Program-made: the position numbers and the translations under genes
Origin: Bacteroidota bacterium
Lineage (GTDB): Bacteria > Bacteroidota > Bacteroidia > JACPRZ01
DNA: 64,000 nucleotides
Assembly (NCBI GenBank): GCA_016193485.1
Contig: JACPRZ010000063.1
Span: 128,156-192,155 of the forward strand
Reading direction: 5' to 3'
In this document: positions 32,039 to 49,346 of the stretch, piece after piece
Layout of the letters: every line of letters starts with the position of its first letter
Numbering within the stretch: the first letter of the stretch is position 1
The notes under the pieces: generated by a model
The model's input: only the letters and a program-made list of their open reading frames with translations
What the model was told of the DNA's origin: nothing
The model's database searches: none

Positions 32039-32136
32039 ATAAGAATGATGTTTATCAGGTTAAAGAGAAAATAAGCCATAAAGTTAGAAAAAAAAGAGGC
32101 GCTGGCGTTCCGGATTGAGTAACCTCTTTACTTACC

Positions 32137-32913
32137 CTACCCGAAAATATCATCACCATTTTTTGTTGTAATGCGCGCAACTTCATCAACCGGCATATTT
32201 AAAACTTCCGCTACTTTATTTATCACAAGCACAAGGTATGCACTCTCATTTCTTTTCCCGCGGTAAGGAACCGGTGTGAGATAAGGCGAATCAGTCTCAA
32301 GAACAATATGTTCAATCCCTATTTTCCGTACAACATCAGGCAGAGCAGAATTTTTATAGGTAATAACTCCCCCGATGCCGAATTTAAAATTTCCAAGTGA
32401 AAGAATCCGGGCAGCATCCTCGTATGTACCGGGAAAGCAATGAAAAATACCAAAAATTGAAGGATCGTGTAACGCTTCAAGTATCTCAATGATTTTATGC
32501 AGCGAAGCACGGGAATGAATAATCACCGGCAGTGAATAACGTTTTGCGACATCGCATTGTATTTTGAACGCATCAACCTGCTCATTTATGAATGTTTTAT
32601 CCCAGTAAAAATCCAGCCCAATCTCCCCTACTCCGTAAAATTTTCCACCGGCAAGGTTTTTTTCAACTTCAGCAAGTTCCTCCCTGTAATTTTCTTTCAC
32701 CGAGCATGGGTGCAACCCCATCAAAGGAAAACAGGTCCCGGGATATTTTTTGCAAACATCAAGCAGCGGCACAACGGTAGCGTTGTCAATGTTCGGGAGA
32801 AAAACCCTATTAACTCCCGCAGAAACGGCTCTCTTTATGACTTCATCCCGGTCATTTTTGAAATCCTCAAGGTAGATGTGGGCGTGGGTATCAATAAGCA
32901 TAGATTTTTTCAA
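32137..32913 (-). CDS. TatD family hydrolase
   Basis: 258 aa with the TIM-barrel metal-binding motifs HAH (IDTHAHI) and an IGLD-type block (EIGLDFYWDK). Confidence 0.85.
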   Translation of the reverse strand: MKKSMLIDTHAHIYLEDFKNDRDEVIKRAVSAGVNRVFLPNIDNATVVPLLDVCKKYPGTCFPLMGLHPCSVKENYREELAEVEKNLAGGKFYGVGEIGLDFYWDKTFINEQVDAFKIQCDVAKRYSLPVIIHSRASLHKIIEILEALHDPSIFGIFHCFPGTYEDAARILSLGNFKFGIGGVITYKNSALPDVVRKIGIEHIVLETDSPYLTPVPYRGKRNESAYLVLVINKVAEVLNMPVDEVARITTKNGDDIFG

Positions 32914-33286
32914 TCAGTTGGTTTACTTTTTCTTCAATCAAATCCCTTACTTTAATCCAATCCCGAATTTCCATATTTTTCGGGTCGGGAATATTCCATT
33001 CTTCTCTGTGATTTGCGGGAATATGCGGACAAGCATCACCGCATCCCATAGTAATCACATAATCAAAAAGCAATTCGCGGTATTCTTCAACTGATTTGGA
33101 CTGATGGAGAGACAAATCATACCTTTTCGTTTTCATCGCTTCAATGGCTTTCGGATTTATTTGTCCCGATGGCTTTGAACCTGCACTGAAGGCAACCACT
33201 TTTCCTTTGCCGGTGATCTTTGCAAATGCCTCCGCCATCTGGCTGCGGCAGGAATTTTCAATGCAAACGAATAATATTTTTTTCAC
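32891..33286 (-). CDS. arsC: arsenate reductase (thioredoxin-coupled, LMW-phosphatase fold)
   Basis: P-loop CIENSCRS (Cx5R) and the downstream GCGDACP redox cysteine pair. The likely start is the GTG giving MKKILFVC. Confidence 0.65.
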   Translation of the reverse strand: MKKILFVCIENSCRSQMAEAFAKITGKGKVVAFSAGSKPSGQINPKAIEAMKTKRYDLSLHQSKSVEEYRELLFDYVITMGCGDACPHIPANHREEWNIPDPKNMEIRDWIKVRDLIEEKVNQLIEKIYAY

Positions 33287-33297
33287 GGCACGTTTTA

Positions 33298-33798
33298 TTA
33301 TTTCCTGATTGGCGATTGCCGTTGAAATGGCACCCTCACAGTAAAAAACGATACCTTTTCCAGGATATGGCAACTGTTGCAACTTGCCGCTAACACATTA
33401 AATTCTTTATTAAAGGCAACTGTATCCATGTTCTCAACTGCCTTTTGCATTTCAGGTAAAACACCGGTCAAAAAGTACTCCGCTGATTTTGTCCTCTTTG
33501 GTCTGCGCTGGAGACCATTTTCGATAGTGAGTTTTATTTTCTCCAACTGATATTTTGCGCATTCCCAGTTTTCGTCTTGCCCGGCCCAATAAAGTTCCTG
33601 GTAGCGATACCCTGTCTCAATCATTGCGATGTCAAGTCCGCGAAATTGTCTCTCAATGGTCTTTAATTTTTCTTCATCTGTTCCTGTTATCCAGTCCCCT
33701 TGTATTGAATCCCTGTCCAGATGGCTGCATGACCGAACAATTATCGCAGCCAGCGCCAGGGTGCATAATCCGGTTACAATTAAATATTTTATTTTCAT
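33298..33798 (-). CDS. periplasmic class-II c-type cytochrome (cytochrome c-prime/c556-like four-helix bundle)
   Basis: Signal peptide and a single CxxCH heme motif (ASCNSCH) about 25 aa from the C-terminus, within a ~140-aa predicted helical protein. Its ATG overlaps the upstream stop in an ATGA arrangement. Confidence 0.5.
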   Translation of the reverse strand: MKIKYLIVTGLCTLALAAIIVRSCSHLDRDSIQGDWITGTDEEKLKTIERQFRGLDIAMIETGYRYQELYWAGQDENWECAKYQLEKIKLTIENGLQRRPKRTKSAEYFLTGVLPEMQKAVENMDTVAFNKEFNVLAASCNSCHILEKVSFFTVRVPFQRQSPIRK

Positions 33799-34544
33799 CG
33801 TTTGCGTATCAATTCAAGAATTCCGGTAATAAACGTCAACGGATGAACGGGATTACCGGGAACAAATAAATCAATTTTGTGCATAGTTAAAAAATTCCTG
33901 TTCAGGGCCGGACTGCCGTCAAAAATTCCCCCGCTGATGGCATCTGTTCCCGCAAGAATGATGATTTTCGGTTCGGGAATCGCATCGTAACAGATCTGCA
34001 GCGGCACCGCCATATTCTCTGTGATGGGTCCCGTGATTACAATTCCGTCTGAATGGCGCGGAGAAGCCACAAACTCAATTCCATATCGGCCCATATCGAA
34101 GTTCACATTTCCGCAGGCATTTAATTCCAGTTCACAACTGTTGTCTCCACCTGCCGAAACCTGTCTTAACTTTATTGAGCCGCTGAAGTACTTTGAGATC
34201 TCTGTCCGGATAATATCAGGATTTAACTCAATGGTTTTATCTTCACCATCCTTAGTGATCAGCCGTTCTCTTTCGTTGGTAGAAATTTTATAGTCAGTTG
34301 TAAATTTGATTTTATCGGGAAAAGCAAATGCACATTCTCCGCAAAAAGCGCACCTGCCCAGATCAATGCACACCGGGCTTCCCGTAATGGCCTCAGTCGG
34401 ACATAACTCAACCAGCGCATTTTCATCTATTGTTTCTTTTGAAATGACAGGCCTTCCCCTGAAAATTCCCGGAACTTTGGCATGAGTTACATCCGGGATA
34501 TATTGCTTTCCCTGGCGGAGAAGTATTTTTATATTATCAATCAT
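33795..34544 (-). CDS. Group-4 hydrogenase/complex-I-like fusion of a ferredoxin domain (HycF/NuoI-like) with a small subunit (HycG/NuoB-like). Canonical Fe-S ligands are mostly missing.
   Basis: FVASPRHSDGIVITGPIT and ILAGTDAISGGIF align to the NuoB/HycG core. The N-terminal domain keeps one CxxCxxC plus a CP. Confidence 0.6.
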   Translation of the reverse strand: MIDNIKILLRQGKQYIPDVTHAKVPGIFRGRPVISKETIDENALVELCPTEAITGSPVCIDLGRCAFCGECAFAFPDKIKFTTDYKISTNERERLITKDGEDKTIELNPDIIRTEISKYFSGSIKLRQVSAGGDNSCELELNACGNVNFDMGRYGIEFVASPRHSDGIVITGPITENMAVPLQICYDAIPEPKIIILAGTDAISGGIFDGSPALNRNFLTMHKIDLFVPGNPVHPLTFITGILELIRKR

Positions 34545-34558
34545 GCTTCCGGGTTAAT

Positions 34559-34927
34559 TTATTTTTTAAACATGAAATATACCGCCAGAACCAGGAAAAT
34601 AAATCCGATGAAATGGTTCATCTTCAATGTTTCATTGTTAAAAAACACCAGGGAGAATAAAACAAAAACCATCAATGTAATTACTTCCTGGATTACCTTT
34701 AGTTCCACAAGAGAAAATGGCCCTCCGAATTCCTTATAACCCAGTCGGTTTGCCGGAATCTGAAAACAGTATTCAAAAAAGGCGATTCCCCAACTGATGG
34801 CAATGACACCTGCAATACTCATGTTCTCAAACCAATTCATTTCCCGGAATTTTAAATGACCATACCACGCTAAAGTCATGAAGGAGTTGGACAGAAGCAG
34901 CAAAAGAATAGTCAGAAGTGGTTTCAT
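34559..34927 (-). CDS. small 4-TM membrane protein (DUF486/DMT-like)
   Basis: 122-aa hydrophobic ORF embedded between the large- and small-subunit genes. Confidence 0.45.
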   Translation of the reverse strand: MKPLLTILLLLLSNSFMTLAWYGHLKFREMNWFENMSIAGVIAISWGIAFFEYCFQIPANRLGYKEFGGPFSLVELKVIQEVITLMVFVLFSLVFFNNETLKMNHFIGFIFLVLAVYFMFKK

Positions 34928-34939
34928 AAATTTTATTTA

Positions 34940-36439
34940 TTAAAGGTCATGTCCGCAATAACTCAGATTAAAACTCTTGTTGCATACCGGGAAGTCGGAA
35001 ATTTCATTGTTGCGCACCGCCAATGCAAGCGCCAGCCAGTTATGAAAGGAAGGGTCTTTTACCTTGTAGTGTACAAGGTTCCCGTTTTCACCGGTGATTG
35101 CGCAATGACAAATTTCCCCTCTCCATCCTTCCACTAATGAAATGCCGAACAAATCGGGAGCGGGAAATGATAATTCTTTTCTTTTTTTATTTTCAGGTGG
35201 AATACTTTTTATCATGTTCCTTATAATCTCTATGGATTGTAATATCTCTTCTTTACGGATCTGCGTACGCGAATAAACATCACCATAATGTTTAATTACC
35301 GGTTCGTGATTCATTCTTTCGTACCAATCGTGCGGATGTGATACCCGTATATCCCTGGGTATTCCCGACATCTTTGCCGCCATGCCGACAGTCCCGATAG
35401 AAGCCGCCTGTTCTTTTGTCACCGTTCCGGTTTTTTCCAGGCGCGCCAATACGCTGGGGAGCGTCTTGAATTCGTCATACATTTCTATAAAATCCCGTTC
35501 GTATTCATCAAACAAACGTTTCAATGGGTCTCCCAATTGTTTTGTGAACGGGTAATTATTTTTTCCCGCCCTGATTAATCCTTTGCCCAATCGGTTTCCG
35601 CACCAACGCTGAAAATAATTGATAACCGGTGTGCGCAGTCGTCCAAAAACAGCGCTTCCGAGTTGATACGCAATATCGGTGCAAAGTGCGCTTAAGTCGC
35701 CCGTATGAATCGCTATTCGCTCCAGTTCCAATGCCAGCGTCCGTGAAAATTGCAAGTGATCCTCCGCGTCATAGTTGCATAAACTTTCCCAAAGGTTTAC
35801 GAAAGCAGTAGTATGCCCGGCTACGGTATCTCCTGCAATGGATTCTGCAAAGTGGGTACGTTGTAAAAGATTATTCTTTTTCAAAAATAATTGCTCGGTT
35901 CCTCTGTGCTGGTAGCCCAATTGAATTTCAAGGTGAAGAATCTGCTCTCCATCGCAGATAAACCGGAAATGTCCCGGCTCTATGATTCCCGCATGAATGG
36001 GACCAACGCCCACTTCATGCACTTCCTCGCTTTCTATGGCATAGAAAGGATAATTCTCGATGCGGGAATTTTTATCTGCACGGCTGAAAGGATAACGCAC
36101 GGGCTTAAGCCAGGGGTGGTCGGAATATTTTATTCCGAAGTTTTCATGGATTTCTCTTTCAAAAAGATGAAATGCAAGATGGTGATGTGTGAAAGAAGGG
36201 AGAACAGAATTGAAATTTATGACAGAGGAAGAAATGGTTATCAAATGTTCCCGGTCATTCGCTATGCAACAGATTAGTATTAACTGATCGCGGTGAGGAT
36301 ATCCGAAATAATTAACGCAATGACAACTTTCATCCTGAAGCAAGGAAATACTCTGCTCCAGCAAATCCTCGTAATTCAGAAGCGGAATATCCCAAAGGGA
36401 AACGGTACTGTTATTTTTTATGCGTATATGTTTTATCAT
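34940..36439 (-). CDS. Group-4 hydrogenase large-subunit / NuoC-NuoD-like fusion that lacks [NiFe]-binding cysteines
   Basis: GPIHAGIIEPGHFRF...LGYQHRGTEQ and a NuoC-like N-terminal domain. AESIAGDTVAGH occupies the position of ERICGICxxxH, and there is no C-terminal DPCxxC. Confidence 0.65.
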   Translation of the reverse strand: MIKHIRIKNNSTVSLWDIPLLNYEDLLEQSISLLQDESCHCVNYFGYPHRDQLILICCIANDREHLITISSSVINFNSVLPSFTHHHLAFHLFEREIHENFGIKYSDHPWLKPVRYPFSRADKNSRIENYPFYAIESEEVHEVGVGPIHAGIIEPGHFRFICDGEQILHLEIQLGYQHRGTEQLFLKKNNLLQRTHFAESIAGDTVAGHTTAFVNLWESLCNYDAEDHLQFSRTLALELERIAIHTGDLSALCTDIAYQLGSAVFGRLRTPVINYFQRWCGNRLGKGLIRAGKNNYPFTKQLGDPLKRLFDEYERDFIEMYDEFKTLPSVLARLEKTGTVTKEQAASIGTVGMAAKMSGIPRDIRVSHPHDWYERMNHEPVIKHYGDVYSRTQIRKEEILQSIEIIRNMIKSIPPENKKRKELSFPAPDLFGISLVEGWRGEICHCAITGENGNLVHYKVKDPSFHNWLALALAVRNNEISDFPVCNKSFNLSYCGHDL

Positions 36440-36441
36440 AT

Positions 36442-37875
36442 TTAATGCGGCAGAGTAATGATTGCCGCATGAATAAGATTGACCAACTCAACAGGAGGAT
36501 AAATACCAAGATAGAATACCATTCCCAAAAGAGCCCATTGTGAAAGCGATTCTGCCGGTTTGATTTTTTCCTCCGGAACATTTCCATAGGGGGGGGAGAA
36601 TATCAGGCGAAAAAAATTTTTTCCCAGAGCCCACACTGAAAAAGTGAGAAGCACGAGTAAAAGAATCAACAGCATGAAATATCCTTTTTCTGCCATTGCC
36701 TTAAGGATCATGAATTCGCTGACGAACAAGCCCGATGGGGGCATTGCGGTAATGCAGACAAAAAGGAGCAGCATAATTATTGCCCCGGAATTATAATAAT
36801 GAAAATATCCACCCGTCCTTCTGATAAGATAATTATTAAAGATGCGATAGACCTGTTGTATCTGGTAGAACATCCCCGCTTTCGTGAACGAATGGAATAT
36901 TAAATGGAGAAATGCCGCATAATATCCAATGCCCCCGGTGCCAAGACCGATCGCGACAATCCCCATATTTTCCAAACTGGAATAAGCAAACATTCTCTTA
37001 AAATGCCTGACACGGATAAGATATACAACGGCAACAAAAACAGATAAAATGCCTGCAACGAGCAGAATGTAATTTGCCCAGGTGGCAATGGATGTCGGAG
37101 CAATCACGGAATAGAATCGGAAGATCGCCATAAATCCTACATTCATCAGCGTAGTTGAAATAAACGCGCTGATGGGTGGAGGGGCAACGGTATGCGCATC
37201 CACGCAAACGGTATGCATGGGAAATAATCCCATTTTGGCGCTGTAACCAATCAGCACGAAAAGAAATGCCAGTTTGAGCCAAAAGGGATTGAACGCAACC
37301 GCGTTGTGAATAAGGGATGAATAGGTAAGATTTATGGTAGCGGCTTCTTGTGCTGCTATGCTCAGAAGGAGAATCCCGATGAACGAAAATGCAAGCGCAA
37401 CGGAACAGACAAAAAGATACTTCCATGCCGCTTCAATGGCATATTCTGTCCGTTCATGATAAATGAGCACTGTAGCGGCAAAGGTGGTGAGTTCTACAAA
37501 TACCCAGGTAACGCCAATATGACTGGAAAGAAAAGCGCCCGTTTGCGCCACGATCAGCAGACAAAATGCGGCATAATAAATTGACTTGGCGCGGTGCGGA
37601 GTGGTATGATGCCGGTGGTGATATTCAAGGTATCCCGCGCTGTGATACGAAGAAGCGGAGGAAAGAACAGCCAGCACAAGCAACATAATCATTGCCGCTC
37701 CATCAGGGATAAAATAGCTAAGTTCTTCCCTGTTCAAATGCAGATACGCATAAACCGTTAAACCCCATTGCAGAGCATTGAAAAGCATCAGCAAAATATG
37801 ATGCAATATCTTACTCCGCGTAAAAAATAAACTCCCTATAAGAGCGATGGCGATGATAAAATAATAAATGATCAT
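36442..37875 (-). CDS. HyfF/NuoN-like proton-pumping antiporter-type membrane subunit
   Basis: 477-aa polytopic protein of the NuoL/M/N-Mrp family. Confidence 0.6.
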   Translation of the reverse strand: MIIYYFIIAIALIGSLFFTRSKILHHILLMLFNALQWGLTVYAYLHLNREELSYFIPDGAAMIMLLVLAVLSSASSYHSAGYLEYHHRHHTTPHRAKSIYYAAFCLLIVAQTGAFLSSHIGVTWVFVELTTFAATVLIYHERTEYAIEAAWKYLFVCSVALAFSFIGILLLSIAAQEAATINLTYSSLIHNAVAFNPFWLKLAFLFVLIGYSAKMGLFPMHTVCVDAHTVAPPPISAFISTTLMNVGFMAIFRFYSVIAPTSIATWANYILLVAGILSVFVAVVYLIRVRHFKRMFAYSSLENMGIVAIGLGTGGIGYYAAFLHLIFHSFTKAGMFYQIQQVYRIFNNYLIRRTGGYFHYYNSGAIIMLLLFVCITAMPPSGLFVSEFMILKAMAEKGYFMLLILLLVLLTFSVWALGKNFFRLIFSPPYGNVPEEKIKPAESLSQWALLGMVFYLGIYPPVELVNLIHAAIITLPH

Positions 37876-37937
37876 TTTTCAGGGCATGATAATCAAATGA
37901 CTCATCGTGCAAATTCAGGTTGATTTTGTTATTCGTT

Positions 37938-48100: not shown

Positions 48101-49346
48101 TGCATTAACTCCTATGGCAATCGGTTACGAAATCGGTGGCGAAGCAAATGTTCCGCTTGCAAGAGCAATCATTGGCGGAGTGCTGATGGCGACATTGCTT
48201 TCACTTTTTGTAGTTCCAATTTTATTTTATCTGTTAAACAAAAAATCTCAAAACAAAATGAAACTCAATCAAACATTAATCCCGATAGCTATCGGGATTC
48301 CGCTCGTGATGCTGCTTGCTTCCTGCGGAAATAAAAGAGAAGAACAACAAACTAAAACTGCAAGCAGAAATGTTCCGACAGTTTTGGTTGGCAATCCGCA
48401 AACACATCAATTCAATTCTTCCTTGCAAATCAGCGGGACAGCAAAACCAAATCAGCAGGTAAAATTATTTGCAATGACAAGCGGAATGTTACGGGAAATA
48501 AATGTTGACATCGGAGATTTTGTAAAACAGGGAGAAACACTTGCCACGCTTGATAATCCCGAACTCATACAGCAGAAAGCAAAAGCCGAAGCCGATTTGA
48601 ACGGAAAGAAATCTATCTACGACAGATTAAAAAGCGTGTATGACAAAACTCCGCAACTCACCACTATTGCAGAAGTGGAAAAAGCACAGGCAGAATTTGA
48701 AAGTGCGAAAGCAATATTGAGCGGTTTGCAATCGCAAATAAATTTCCTGCAAATACAATCACCGTTTTCAGGAGTAATTGTCAATCGTTTTTTTGACAAA
48801 GGAGCAACCATTCAGAGCGGGTTAAATAATTCCAACGCAATGCCTCTTTTTGAAATTCAGGATTTACAACCGATAAGATTGACTATTGATATTCCCGAAA
48901 CAGACGCAGTTCTCATTGACAAAAATACAAAAACAGAAATTACATTTCCTGAATTGCCCAATGGAAAATACACGGCAGCAGTTTCACGCATTGCTTATGG
49001 ATTGGATGAAAACACAAAAACAATGAAGGTGGAAATTGATTTACCGAATACAGATTTAAAAATTCGTTCAGGAATGTATGCGAAAGTTGAAATAAAACGG
49101 AGCGGACATAAAGATGTCTTGTCCGTTCCGAATGAAGCAATCGGAAATGTGAAAGGGCAATCGTTTATCTATGTAGTGAATGATGGAAAAGTGAAAAAAA
49201 TAGAAGTAAAAGCAGGAATACGAGATGATAAATTTTCCGAATTGCTGAATGTAGAAATAAAATCCACCGACAAAATTGTAGTGCAGGGTAAAGAATTTTG
49301 TAGTGATGGAGCAACCGTTCAAACAAAAGAATTAATCACTAAATAA
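45114..49346 (+). CDS. RND efflux permease (AcrB/CzcA superfamily, ~1045 aa) fused in-frame to a periplasmic adaptor subunit (MFP/HlyD-like, ~360 aa)
   Basis: N-terminal KLPVDILPNYK...YPGMPAEVME and 12-TM RND architecture. Three codons after the RND C-terminus (...YLLNKKSQNK), the frame continues through MKLNQTLIPIAIGIPLVMLLASCGNK (a lipoprotein signal) into a lipoyl/beta-barrel adaptor, with no stop codon. Confidence 0.75.
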   Translation: MLELAFKNKYLIIVAALLVAVISIVSIQKLPVDILPNYKTSAVQVLTLYPGMPAEVMEKDITSRIERWTGQSNGIEHQESKSLIGVSIVKDFFREEIDPNTSLSQVTSLAMSDLYYLPPGTVPPMVMPFDPTATTPLALLAVSSDSLSEKELYDIAYFQLRNLLGSVQGIIAPAVYGGKLRRIYMYVYPDKLQAYNLSQIDVMEAVQKNNVMIPTGDVNIGNMNYSVNANGMLPKVEDFNNIVIKMGRDARLPDGQGSPIFLKDIGYAKDASAIQTNMVHINGKRQVYIPIYKRTGANTIASVEAVKNKLAELKERLPKAINLDVILDQSTYVRNSINGLLKEGTLGLILVSLALFLFLGNFRSTFIVALSIPLSVMFAFIGLFFTGDTINSMTLGGIALAIGLLVDDSIVVLENIDKHLKQGKTSAQAAFDGAKEVAMPVLVTTITICIVFFPIIFLTGISKYLFTPLAIVVSFAMIGSRIFSMTLVPIAAAAFFKGHSNENKPESLPAGRQGFLGMFDRGVTNLTNRYALMMDKVIKFRWVILISVALLFIISIFGFRKIGTELFPKMDVGQISIDVRMESGTRIEKSEKTITEIEKFLQKEIGNDLNIIISNMGVLNDWPAAYTSNSGTQDATIAVQLKEGYKIKTADYVKKLRPKLKEQFPGVQFIFNTGGIVTTALNFGLPSPIDIQITGNDLHKSHEIAVKVRDIVQNIKGTEDVRIHQRYDHPEIKVDIDRTKAAQLGINADDVVKNTVSALNSSVNFKPSFWIDEKNGNHYFVGVTYPEIELDNPQSVENISLTGTNGKTTFLKNIAKTSLSSAPIEINHLNIQRVTDVFANVEERDIGSVAKEIENKLETLKKDLPEGYKIEMRGEIKSMKDSFGNLGLGLILAVLMVYLVIVPLLRSFKLPLIIITVIPLGLIGVTGMLLATNTYLNIQSMMGIIMMVGITVAYSNLLVDKMNNLLKAGKNLEDAIKEGVANRFRPIIMTAIVAVLALTPMAIGYEIGGEANVPLARAIIGGVLMATLLSLFVVPILFYLLNKKSQNKMKLNQTLIPIAIGIPLVMLLASCGNKREEQQTKTASRNVPTVLVGNPQTHQFNSSLQISGTAKPNQQVKLFAMTSGMLREINVDIGDFVKQGETLATLDNPELIQQKAKAEADLNGKKSIYDRLKSVYDKTPQLTTIAEVEKAQAEFESAKAILSGLQSQINFLQIQSPFSGVIVNRFFDKGATIQSGLNNSNAMPLFEIQDLQPIRLTIDIPETDAVLIDKNTKTEITFPELPNGKYTAAVSRIAYGLDENTKTMKVEIDLPNTDLKIRSGMYAKVEIKRSGHKDVLSVPNEAIGNVKGQSFIYVVNDGKVKKIEVKAGIRDDKFSELLNVEIKSTDKIVVQGKEFCSDGATVQTKELITK
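48281..48296. repeat. Perfect 16-bp palindrome CCCGATAGCTATCGGG inside the adaptor signal-peptide coding region
   Basis: It encodes IPIAIGI. It belongs to the same motif family as 10283, 12872, 12918 and 54143. Confidence 0.8.

Follow-up and report, generated by a model that had tools for sequence, protein, structure and literature searches.

Is a c-type cytochrome whose gene closes an Ehr-type operon a working partner of the membrane complex encoded ahead of it, or a passenger? The question is raised by a 64-kb stretch of DNA from a Bacteroidota bacterium (assembly GCA_016193485.1, contig JACPRZ010000063.1, forward-strand positions 128,156 to 192,155; hereafter the window). Ten genes, running from 41502 to 32137 and all on the minus strand, comprise a seven-gene cluster assignable by its predicted subunits to the Ehr type, followed by genes for a predicted haem lipoprotein of 166 amino acids (aa), an arsenate reductase of the ArsC type and a TatD-family hydrolase. 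Ehr complexes are relatives of group-4 NiFe hydrogenases without the Ni/Fe-coordinating cysteines (PMC6349859). A link between such a complex and a cytochrome would matter if it were true, as a clue to the partners and function of Ehr-type complexes. The initial annotation of the window had proposed such a link, in which the cytochrome is wired to the Q-module of the Ehr-like complex, with a hint of arsenate or another oxyanion. Our best explanation, to which we assign a probability of about 0.7, is instead that the operon tail represents a lineage-specific accretion of accessory genes on a self-contained Ehr-like cassette, with no functional redox partnership; it looks like ordinary operon accretion.

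The linkage was examined from both sides. On the cytochrome side, one locus with 10-kb flanks from each of 80 species (mostly Bacteroidota, together with two Ignavibacteria metagenome-assembled genomes (MAGs) and one Myxococcota MAG) was searched with tblastn for the Ehr-like proteins, for the DMT_6 membrane protein encoded inside the window's cluster, for TatD and for the EF-G-like neighbour, and none was found (0/80). ArsC-like matches occurred in two of the 80 loci, never directly downstream of the cytochrome gene. The closest cytochrome homologues are without Ehr-like neighbours, being arranged as AraC-cytochrome-DoxX-TauE in P0016 (73% identity) and as cytochrome-TauE in P0004 (68%), and the neighbours of P0005 (75%) match no Pfam family.

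On the Ehr side, 80 metagenomic loci were compared, in which the small subunit is 68-81% identical to that of the window and the sequence extends at least 600 nucleotides (nt) downstream in 70 loci and at least 1500 nt in 56. Cytochrome, ArsC and DMT_6 genes are absent in or after the Ehr-like cluster in all 80, as is a downstream TatD gene; the lone TatD match is weak and lies upstream (locus L139). No gene family recurs in more than four loci downstream of the small-subunit gene, and in these relatives the Ehr-like cluster stops at that NuoB-like gene. In the nearest relative (82% identity, GCA_016195025.1), a six-gene cluster without DMT_6 is followed by an FAD/NAD/2Fe-2S reductase gene, and on the 3.6-Mb contig of another relative a convergent gene lies after the cluster. 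Judged from these loci, a neighbourhood of Ehr, cytochrome and ArsC is not conserved from either side, and the check in relatives that had been suggested for the wiring proposal turned out negative. The comparison suggests a cassette of six or seven genes (antiporter-like, NuoH-like, HyfE-like, NuoCD-like and NuoB-like) that ends at the NuoB-like gene, to which four genes would have been added in the window's lineage, namely DMT_6 inside the cluster and the cytochrome, ArsC and TatD genes after it.

The ten genes and the associated features are listed below in the direction of reading.

39511..41502, minus strand: HyfB/NuoL-type antiporter-like subunit, first gene of the cluster (PF00361, 181 bits; NF005086, hydrogenase 4 subunit B, 473 bits, under its equivalog cut-off).
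38576..39496, minus strand: NuoH/HycD-like membrane subunit (PF00146, 108.7 bits).
37938..38570, minus strand: HyfE-like membrane subunit (NF008556, 58.7 bits; PF00420, weak).
37876..37937, minus strand: intergenic gap of 62 nt between the hyfE-like and hyfF-like genes, the sole gap above 15 nt in the run.
36442..37875, minus strand: HyfF/NuoN-type antiporter-like subunit (PF00361, 128 bits; NF005044, 234 bits).
34940..36439, minus strand: fused NuoC/NuoD-type "large subunit" without NiFe ligands (PF00346 and PF00329).
34559..34927, minus strand: DMT_6/DUF486 membrane protein, between the large- and small-subunit genes (PF04342, 141 bits).
33795..34544, minus strand: small-subunit homologue with a NuoI-like half-ferredoxin and a NuoB-like domain (PF01058, 69 bits).
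33795..33798, minus strand: ATGA stop/start overlap of the small-subunit and cytochrome genes (direct sequence reading).
33298..33798, minus strand: 166-aa lipoprotein, a predicted distant class-II-type monohaem cytochrome c (family alignment, sub-threshold PF01322, AlphaFold2 and Foldseek), with the signal peptide at 33798-33730, lipobox Cys24 at 33729-33727 and CxxCH at 33381-33367.
32891..33286, minus strand: arsenate reductase of the low-molecular-weight protein tyrosine phosphatase (LMW-PTP) type, GTG start, 131 aa (PF01451, 80.5 bits).
33265-33245, minus strand: P-loop C8-X5-R14 of ArsC, which also has C82 and C86.
32137..32901, minus strand: TatD/YchF-family metal-dependent hydrolase (PF01026, 236 bits, residues 3-253; TIGR00010, 234.8 bits against a cut-off of 206).
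32086..32129, minus strand: weak terminator-like hairpin (AAGAGG...CCUCUU) with U8 after tatD (fold -11 kcal/mol).

The initial annotation identified the tail genes mostly correctly, as those of a class-II cytochrome c, an ArsC-type reductase and TatD; the cytochrome is a distant member of its type with a predicted signal peptide, and the ArsC is of the LMW-PTP type. The same annotation had described the ten genes as co-directional with gaps of 15 nt or less. The shared orientation holds throughout; the gaps, in order, are 14, 5, 62, 2, 12, 14, -4, 11 and -11 nt, and the limit of 15 nt fails at the hyfE-like/hyfF-like junction, where the 62 nt are counted to the first possible start codon. Elsewhere in the window, 5 of 25 co-directional neighbour pairs (20%) lie no more than 15 nt apart; the packing of the ten-gene run is tighter than chance and is not the default of this genome.

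At the border between the cassette and its tail, the ATG of the cytochrome gene (33798-33796) overlaps the TGA (33797-33795) of the small-subunit gene (NuoB-like, 249 aa), with three bases shared, and the ATGA reported there earlier can be read directly in the sequence. The cytochrome open reading frame ends with TAA at 33300-33298. The arsC gene begins 11 nt past this stop codon at GTG 33286, a start backed by alignment with ten homologues, all of which begin M-(K/S)-x-(I/V)-LFVC (MKKILFVC here). From ATG 32901, tatD overlaps the arsC TGA (32893-32891) by 11 nt, and from the alternative TTG 32913 by 23 nt, in keeping with the order and overlap first noted. The Logan gene calls begin arsC at an internal ATG (115 aa; 33238-33286 region) and lose the catalytic Cys8, and in NCBI protein P0001 the cytochrome begins 13 codons after ATG 33798 (33759-33798), with a shortened signal peptide as the result. 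The homology-supported starts of both genes, as predicted here, differ from these public gene calls.

The subunits of the upstream cluster point to the Ehr type. Group-4-hydrogenase-like large and small subunits, a NuoH-like subunit and antiporter-like subunits are encoded in one cluster (PF00361 twice, PF00146, PF00346/PF00329 and PF01058). Compared with Escherichia coli HycE (7z0s_E), the Ni/Fe ligands of the large subunit are lost, CGIC being replaced by AGDT and DPCYSC by NLSYCG. In the small subunit, comparison with MbhJ (6cfw_J) shows that only Cys137 remains of the four proximal [4Fe-4S] cluster (N2 cluster) cysteines, the other three being replaced by D134, D201 and N231. Nineteen relatives have the same residue at each of these four positions, which suggests that D134, C137, D201 and N231 form a conserved site that does not hold an Fe-S cluster. 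The NuoI-like N-terminal half of the same protein retains C48, C65, C68 and C71, four cysteines that by their number would be sufficient for one cluster. With the NiFe ligands missing from the Q-module and only one of its four proximal-cluster cysteines retained, electron wiring becomes less plausible, and the sequence offers no evident electron path that the cytochrome could tap. The DMT_6 gene, flanked by gaps of 12 and 14 nt, is found in none of the 80 related Ehr-like loci, and its insertion thus appears to be confined to the window's lineage.

The window's cluster shares with the described Ehr complexes (PMC6349859) the group-4-hydrogenase-like subunits, the Mrp-antiporter-like subunits and the missing Ni/Fe ligands, and it differs in that three of the four proximal-cluster cysteines of the small subunit are lost too, in that no partner oxidoreductase is conserved next to this type of cluster, and in the c-type cytochrome gene at the operon end, which is confined to one lineage. 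The Bacteroidota Ehr-like cassette emerges as self-contained: it comprises six or seven genes, no neighbouring gene is conserved, and its redox cofactors are strongly degraded. We know of no description of a c-type cytochrome gene ending an Ehr operon.

The product of that cytochrome gene carries the single C-terminal CxxCH expected of class II cytochromes c (C140-N-S-C143-H144), which is invariant in 24 of 24 aligned homologues, the window protein itself included. Its N terminus consists of Lys2 and Lys4, a hydrophobic stretch of 17 residues and then Cys24, which is aligned with the invariant lipobox Cys of the family; the Arg at position -2 departs from the usual lipobox. The N terminus is a predicted type-II signal peptide, and a periplasmic location and covalent haem are predicted accordingly from the motifs. 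C24, Met59, a GYRYQELYWAG block, RRPKR and C140xxC143H144 are invariant in the 24-sequence alignment. Because the window cytochrome retains all 51 invariant positions and departs at only 2 of the 22 near-invariant ones, it appears to be a working gene and not a decaying remnant.

At normal thresholds the protein matches no family in Pfam (E <= 0.01) or NCBIfam; when the threshold is relaxed, it touches a single Pfam family, PF01322, with 16.3 bits against a gathering threshold of 26.5 (E = 0.019; residues 115-144 aligned to profile positions 88-117). Homologues number 475 at E <= 0.001 (90% clustering), and the named ones are all called "hypothetical protein" except one with an evidently wrong Csm2 label; a profile search of 1.84 billion representatives (50% clustering) returned 1205 relatives. 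The AlphaFold2 model (predicted local distance difference test score 78, predicted TM-score 0.62) consists of a signal helix and five helices, and its top Foldseek matches in the PDB are cytochromes c' (1cpr, 2j9b, 1rcp, 1jaf) with probabilities of 0.95-0.98, although with weak E-values (0.4-0.7) and TM-scores (0.4-0.5). Single-sequence and profile searches of the PDB sequences gave nothing significant. Some distant relatives (E <= 1e-30) do pass the PF01322 cut-off (P0438, 39.1 bits; P0403, 33.1; P0414, 30.0; P0440, 27.9). At the level of the superfamily, "class-II cytochrome c" is thus a fair name for this lipoprotein, which fails the sequence threshold of the family.

Some of the distant relatives consist of three tandem copies of the domain, and some are fused to class-I cytochrome c domains (P0403, P0414, P0438, P0443, P0479, P0466); one protein combines the domain with both a class-I cytochrome c and a CCP/MauG (di-haem cytochrome c peroxidase) domain. 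Such fusions suggest a role of the family as periplasmic electron donors.

With class II cytochromes c (PF01322; for example, cytochrome c' of Rhodobacter capsulatus, 1CPR) the 166-aa protein shares the single CxxCH ending the last helix, the predicted export and, as far as the weak fold matches go, the predicted helical bundle. It differs in being a predicted lipoprotein with an invariant lipobox Cys and not a soluble protein, and in having an extra N-terminal helix and the invariant Met59, which could be a sixth haem ligand. The family is, moreover, almost restricted to Bacteroidota and has a synteny with AraC, DoxX, ChrA and TauE that, to our knowledge, is not known for cytochrome c'. Kuenenia stuttgartiensis Kusta0087/0088 (PDB 6R6M/N/O), likewise small, helical and monohaem c-type, gave the best target-normalised TM-score (0.71) and the lowest E-value among cytochromes in the profile search of the PDB (0.52), with no significant sequence similarity; it is a soluble heterodimer from another phylum, whereas the window protein is a predicted lipoprotein.

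In its usual setting, the cytochrome family keeps quite different company. Clustering of neighbouring open reading frames in the 80 cytochrome loci placed a DoxX-family membrane protein directly downstream in 50 (median distance 12 nt) and an AraC-family regulator upstream, at about 99 nt, in 39. ChrA chromate transporters occur in 37 loci, a PAP2 phosphatase in 19, and TauE/SafE and an amino-acid permease in about 10 each; an arsenic operon of the order ArsR-DUF-phosphatase (LMWPTP)-ACR3 lies just upstream of the AraC and cytochrome genes in about 12. An exact 16-mer, TTTCAAATAGACCATA, is found about 50-65 nt before the cytochrome start in ten loci of different genera (L005, L006, L011-L014, L017, L021, L023 and L026), and it probably serves the adjacent AraC-type regulator as operator. 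Neither this 16-mer nor the conserved upstream region is present in the window, and searches of the 64 kb for DoxX, AraC, ChrA, PAP2, ArsR, ACR3, TauE, methyltransferase and permease genes found none. The window cytochrome would thus have lost its own regulatory region and come under the control of the Ehr-like operon.

Loci assigned to Kriegella, Phaeodactylibacter, Aquimarina, Mesoflavibacter (an isolate) and a Flavobacteriales MAG share at least 13.4 kb, the cytochrome gene included, at 98-99% nucleotide identity; Phaeodactylibacter belongs to another class. The shared stretch carries AraC, cytochrome, PAP2, DoxX, PAP2, ChrA, sigma factor and heavy-metal genes in this order (L013, 7047-20442; also L012, L017, L021 and L026), which suggests a resistance island for metals or oxyanions that was transferred recently. 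The family seems, on this evidence, to be accessory and in some cases mobile.

The second tail gene encodes a three-cysteine ArsC of the LMW-PTP type, as predicted from its motifs. The family alignment shows no variation at the P-loop and catalytic Asp (C8-IENSC-R14-S15 and D101-P102) or at C82 and C86 in TMGCGDACP, which align with GCGDVCP of Corynebacterium glutamicum ArsC (3T38). Homologues of 66-67% identity bear the name "arsenate reductase ArsC", and the best PDB matches are the ArsC proteins of Synechocystis, Staphylococcus aureus pI258 and C. glutamicum. The scores lie under the NCBIfam equivalog cut-offs (TIGR02689, 89 vs 157.6; TIGR02691, 78.8 vs 174.3; NF010053, 81.4 vs 215). Compared with the thioredoxin-coupled enzymes (pI258, 1LJL; C. 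glutamicum, 3T38; Synechocystis, 2L17), the window ArsC shares the LMWPc fold, the CX5R(S) P-loop and the Asp of the DP motif, and the GCGDxCP motif with its two further cysteines is identical to that of C. glutamicum; it differs from pI258 ArsC in having CX3C instead of CX6C, and it has no surrounding ars operon in the window.

Elsewhere, homologues of this ArsC (66-71% identity) are single genes in the settings pstC-arsC-pstA, arsR-arsM-arsC and aquaglyceroporin (MIP)-arsC, often with 4-nt overlaps. In loci L167-L169, a homologue of 71% identity follows pstC and precedes pstA within a pstSCAB operon, overlapping each of the two by 4 nt, an order that pairs arsenate detoxification with phosphate uptake. 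The third tail gene belongs to the TatD/YchF family, matching over its full length above curated cut-offs.

As to expression, spacings of -4, 11 and -11 nt make the tail genes near-abutting or overlapping, as coupled genes are, and co-transcription and translational coupling are likely, as the initial annotation had argued from the tight packing. The Bacteroidetes -7 motif TAnnTTTG was not found on the minus strand between 29000 and 35881 in a scan that is only weakly informative; it stands directly upstream of many other window genes. Since there is no intergenic room and no such motif in 35881-29000, the tail genes would most likely be read through from the Ehr-like promoter. A scan for sigma-70 promoters and terminators gave the same result as for shuffled sequence, with a model unsuited to Bacteroidota. 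The hairpin after tatD, where a 98-nt gap precedes the EF-G-like gene, folds no better than shuffled sequence (z = 0.42) and is a possible end of the transcription unit.

The cytochrome would then probably be translated by re-initiation at the ATGA, coupled to termination of the small subunit, exported by the Sec pathway, lipidated at Cys24 and loaded in the periplasm with one covalent haem at C140xxC143H144. ArsC would reduce arsenate in the cytoplasm through a Cys8/Cys82/Cys86 relay, and TatD would act there as a housekeeping hydrolase. Guanine-plus-cytosine (GC) content and skew across the junctions, and searches for flanking repeats, gave no insertion scar and no foreign composition, the GC content being even; the accretion is therefore not recent, or the donor genome was of similar composition.

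Several points weigh against accretion without partnership. An overlap of 4 nt with zero intergenic space can reflect selection for stoichiometric co-expression, and so a link particular to this lineage; the cytochrome, as described above, appears to be functional. The promoter-motif test is weak, as the operon's own upstream region is also without a perfect motif, and co-transcription and coupling are read from spacing only. The search for the usual partners covers 64 kb of the genome, and DoxX, ChrA or TauE may lie elsewhere in it. Lastly, sampling is thin both for the window genome and for those closest to it, with the next Ehr-like locus at 82% identity, and the comparative data sample the arrangement in a single lineage.

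Among the alternatives, the one that survives best, although it is unlikely, takes the cytochrome and ArsC genes as a two-gene oxyanion-stress cassette, a fragment of an ars/chr island that landed downstream of the Ehr-like cluster; the link would then be between cytochrome and ArsC and not between cytochrome and Ehr. This is a more specific version of the accretion explanation and is compatible with it. The arsenic operon lying directly upstream of AraC and cytochrome in about 12 of 80 loci, the ChrA (37) and TauE (about 10) neighbours and the genuine arsenic or phosphate contexts of the window's ArsC family elsewhere all speak for it. However, the cytochrome is directly followed by ArsC in none of the 80 loci, the island-type phosphatase (204 aa) is another protein with no significant match in the window, ArsC is predicted to be cytoplasmic and the cytochrome periplasmic, and no composition anomaly or flanking repeat marks an insertion.

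Somewhat less likely still is transcription of the tail genes on their own, from promoters within the upstream coding sequences, with the overlaps reflecting genome compaction. Internal promoters are common in long operons, the 62-nt gap upstream means that the ten genes are not uniformly packed, and TatD as a housekeeping protein would need steady expression. Against this, the coding strand of 35881-29000 is devoid of TAnnTTTG, the motif that precedes many other window genes, and coupled genes typically show overlaps such as -4 and -11 nt, a tightness that only 20% of the other co-directional pairs reach.

A worked-out form of the wiring proposed at the outset fares far worse. In it, the Ehr-like complex of this one lineage would have acquired the haem lipoprotein and ArsC as working partners and would pass electrons, via quinone or directly, to the lipoprotein in the periplasm, the ATGA would keep the two in step by stoichiometric co-expression, and ArsC or another oxyanion reaction would belong to the same pathway; were it true, an Ehr-type complex would for the first time be linked with a c-type cytochrome and with oxyanion stress. 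The ATGA overlap and the zero intergenic space agree with this proposal, as do the intact and conserved cytochrome with its predicted periplasmic export signal and the stability of the arrangement across five samples. We nevertheless regard a true partnership as very improbable: the linkage is missing from the 80 cytochrome loci, from the 80 Ehr-like loci and from the nearest relatives; the loss of the NiFe ligands and of all but one of the four proximal-cluster cysteines leaves no obvious electron path to the membrane; the cytochrome family has other strongly conserved partners in AraC, DoxX and ChrA/TauE; and TatD and DMT_6 have no redox role.

A chimera or mis-join at the small-subunit/cytochrome junction, conceivable for a unique arrangement in a MAG, is effectively refuted by five independent Logan assemblies (SRR12113385/421/425/429/433), in which an identical small-subunit protein is followed by the same 166-aa gene (arsC and tatD being present in three of them as well), and by the even GC content across the junctions; the arrangement is therefore real.

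Accretion thus remains the preferred explanation, and within it the cytochrome and ArsC may form a small oxyanion-stress pair. Oxyanion or redox stress, without involvement of Ehr, is the only functional theme with support, because the usual neighbours of the cytochrome are anion exporters and ars genes and ArsC is adjacent here. The oxyanion hint of the initial annotation stands in so far as the cytochrome family lies beside ChrA/TauE exporters and ars genes, and falls in its connection with the Ehr module.

Other genes around the run include an NfnA-like gene (FAD_binding_6 and a DHODB Fe-S domain) and a GltD/NfnB-like gene at 41628-44551, divergent from the Ehr-like cluster and separated from each other by a DUF559 endonuclease-like gene (42593-43024). 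The divergent NfnAB-like pair was considered as a conserved Ehr partner and rejected, as none of the 80 Ehr-like loci, including 27 with at least 1.5 kb upstream, carries such genes. Further along, 45114-49346 encodes a protein of 1410 aa in which an AcrB-type resistance-nodulation-division transporter (1-1041) is fused to a C-terminal HlyD/CusB-type membrane-fusion domain (1103-1323). Rfam and tRNA scans of the window found one tRNA-Met only, distant from the region.

As the evidence makes the cytochrome a passenger, it gives no clue to the function of Ehr, and tight overlaps by themselves prove a poor indicator of functional partnership. The part worth following up is the cytochrome family, which is large, has no family-level annotation and keeps a very conserved AraC-cytochrome-DoxX-ChrA/TauE neighbourhood, a combination on which literature searches found nothing relevant. 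We tentatively propose, at somewhat less than even odds, that it represents an undescribed periplasmic redox module of Bacteroidota for chromate, arsenic or sulfite stress, which is likelier than a partnership of Ehr, cytochrome and ArsC. Cultured Flavobacterium, Chryseobacterium and Maribacter strains carry the family, so it is open to experimental testing.

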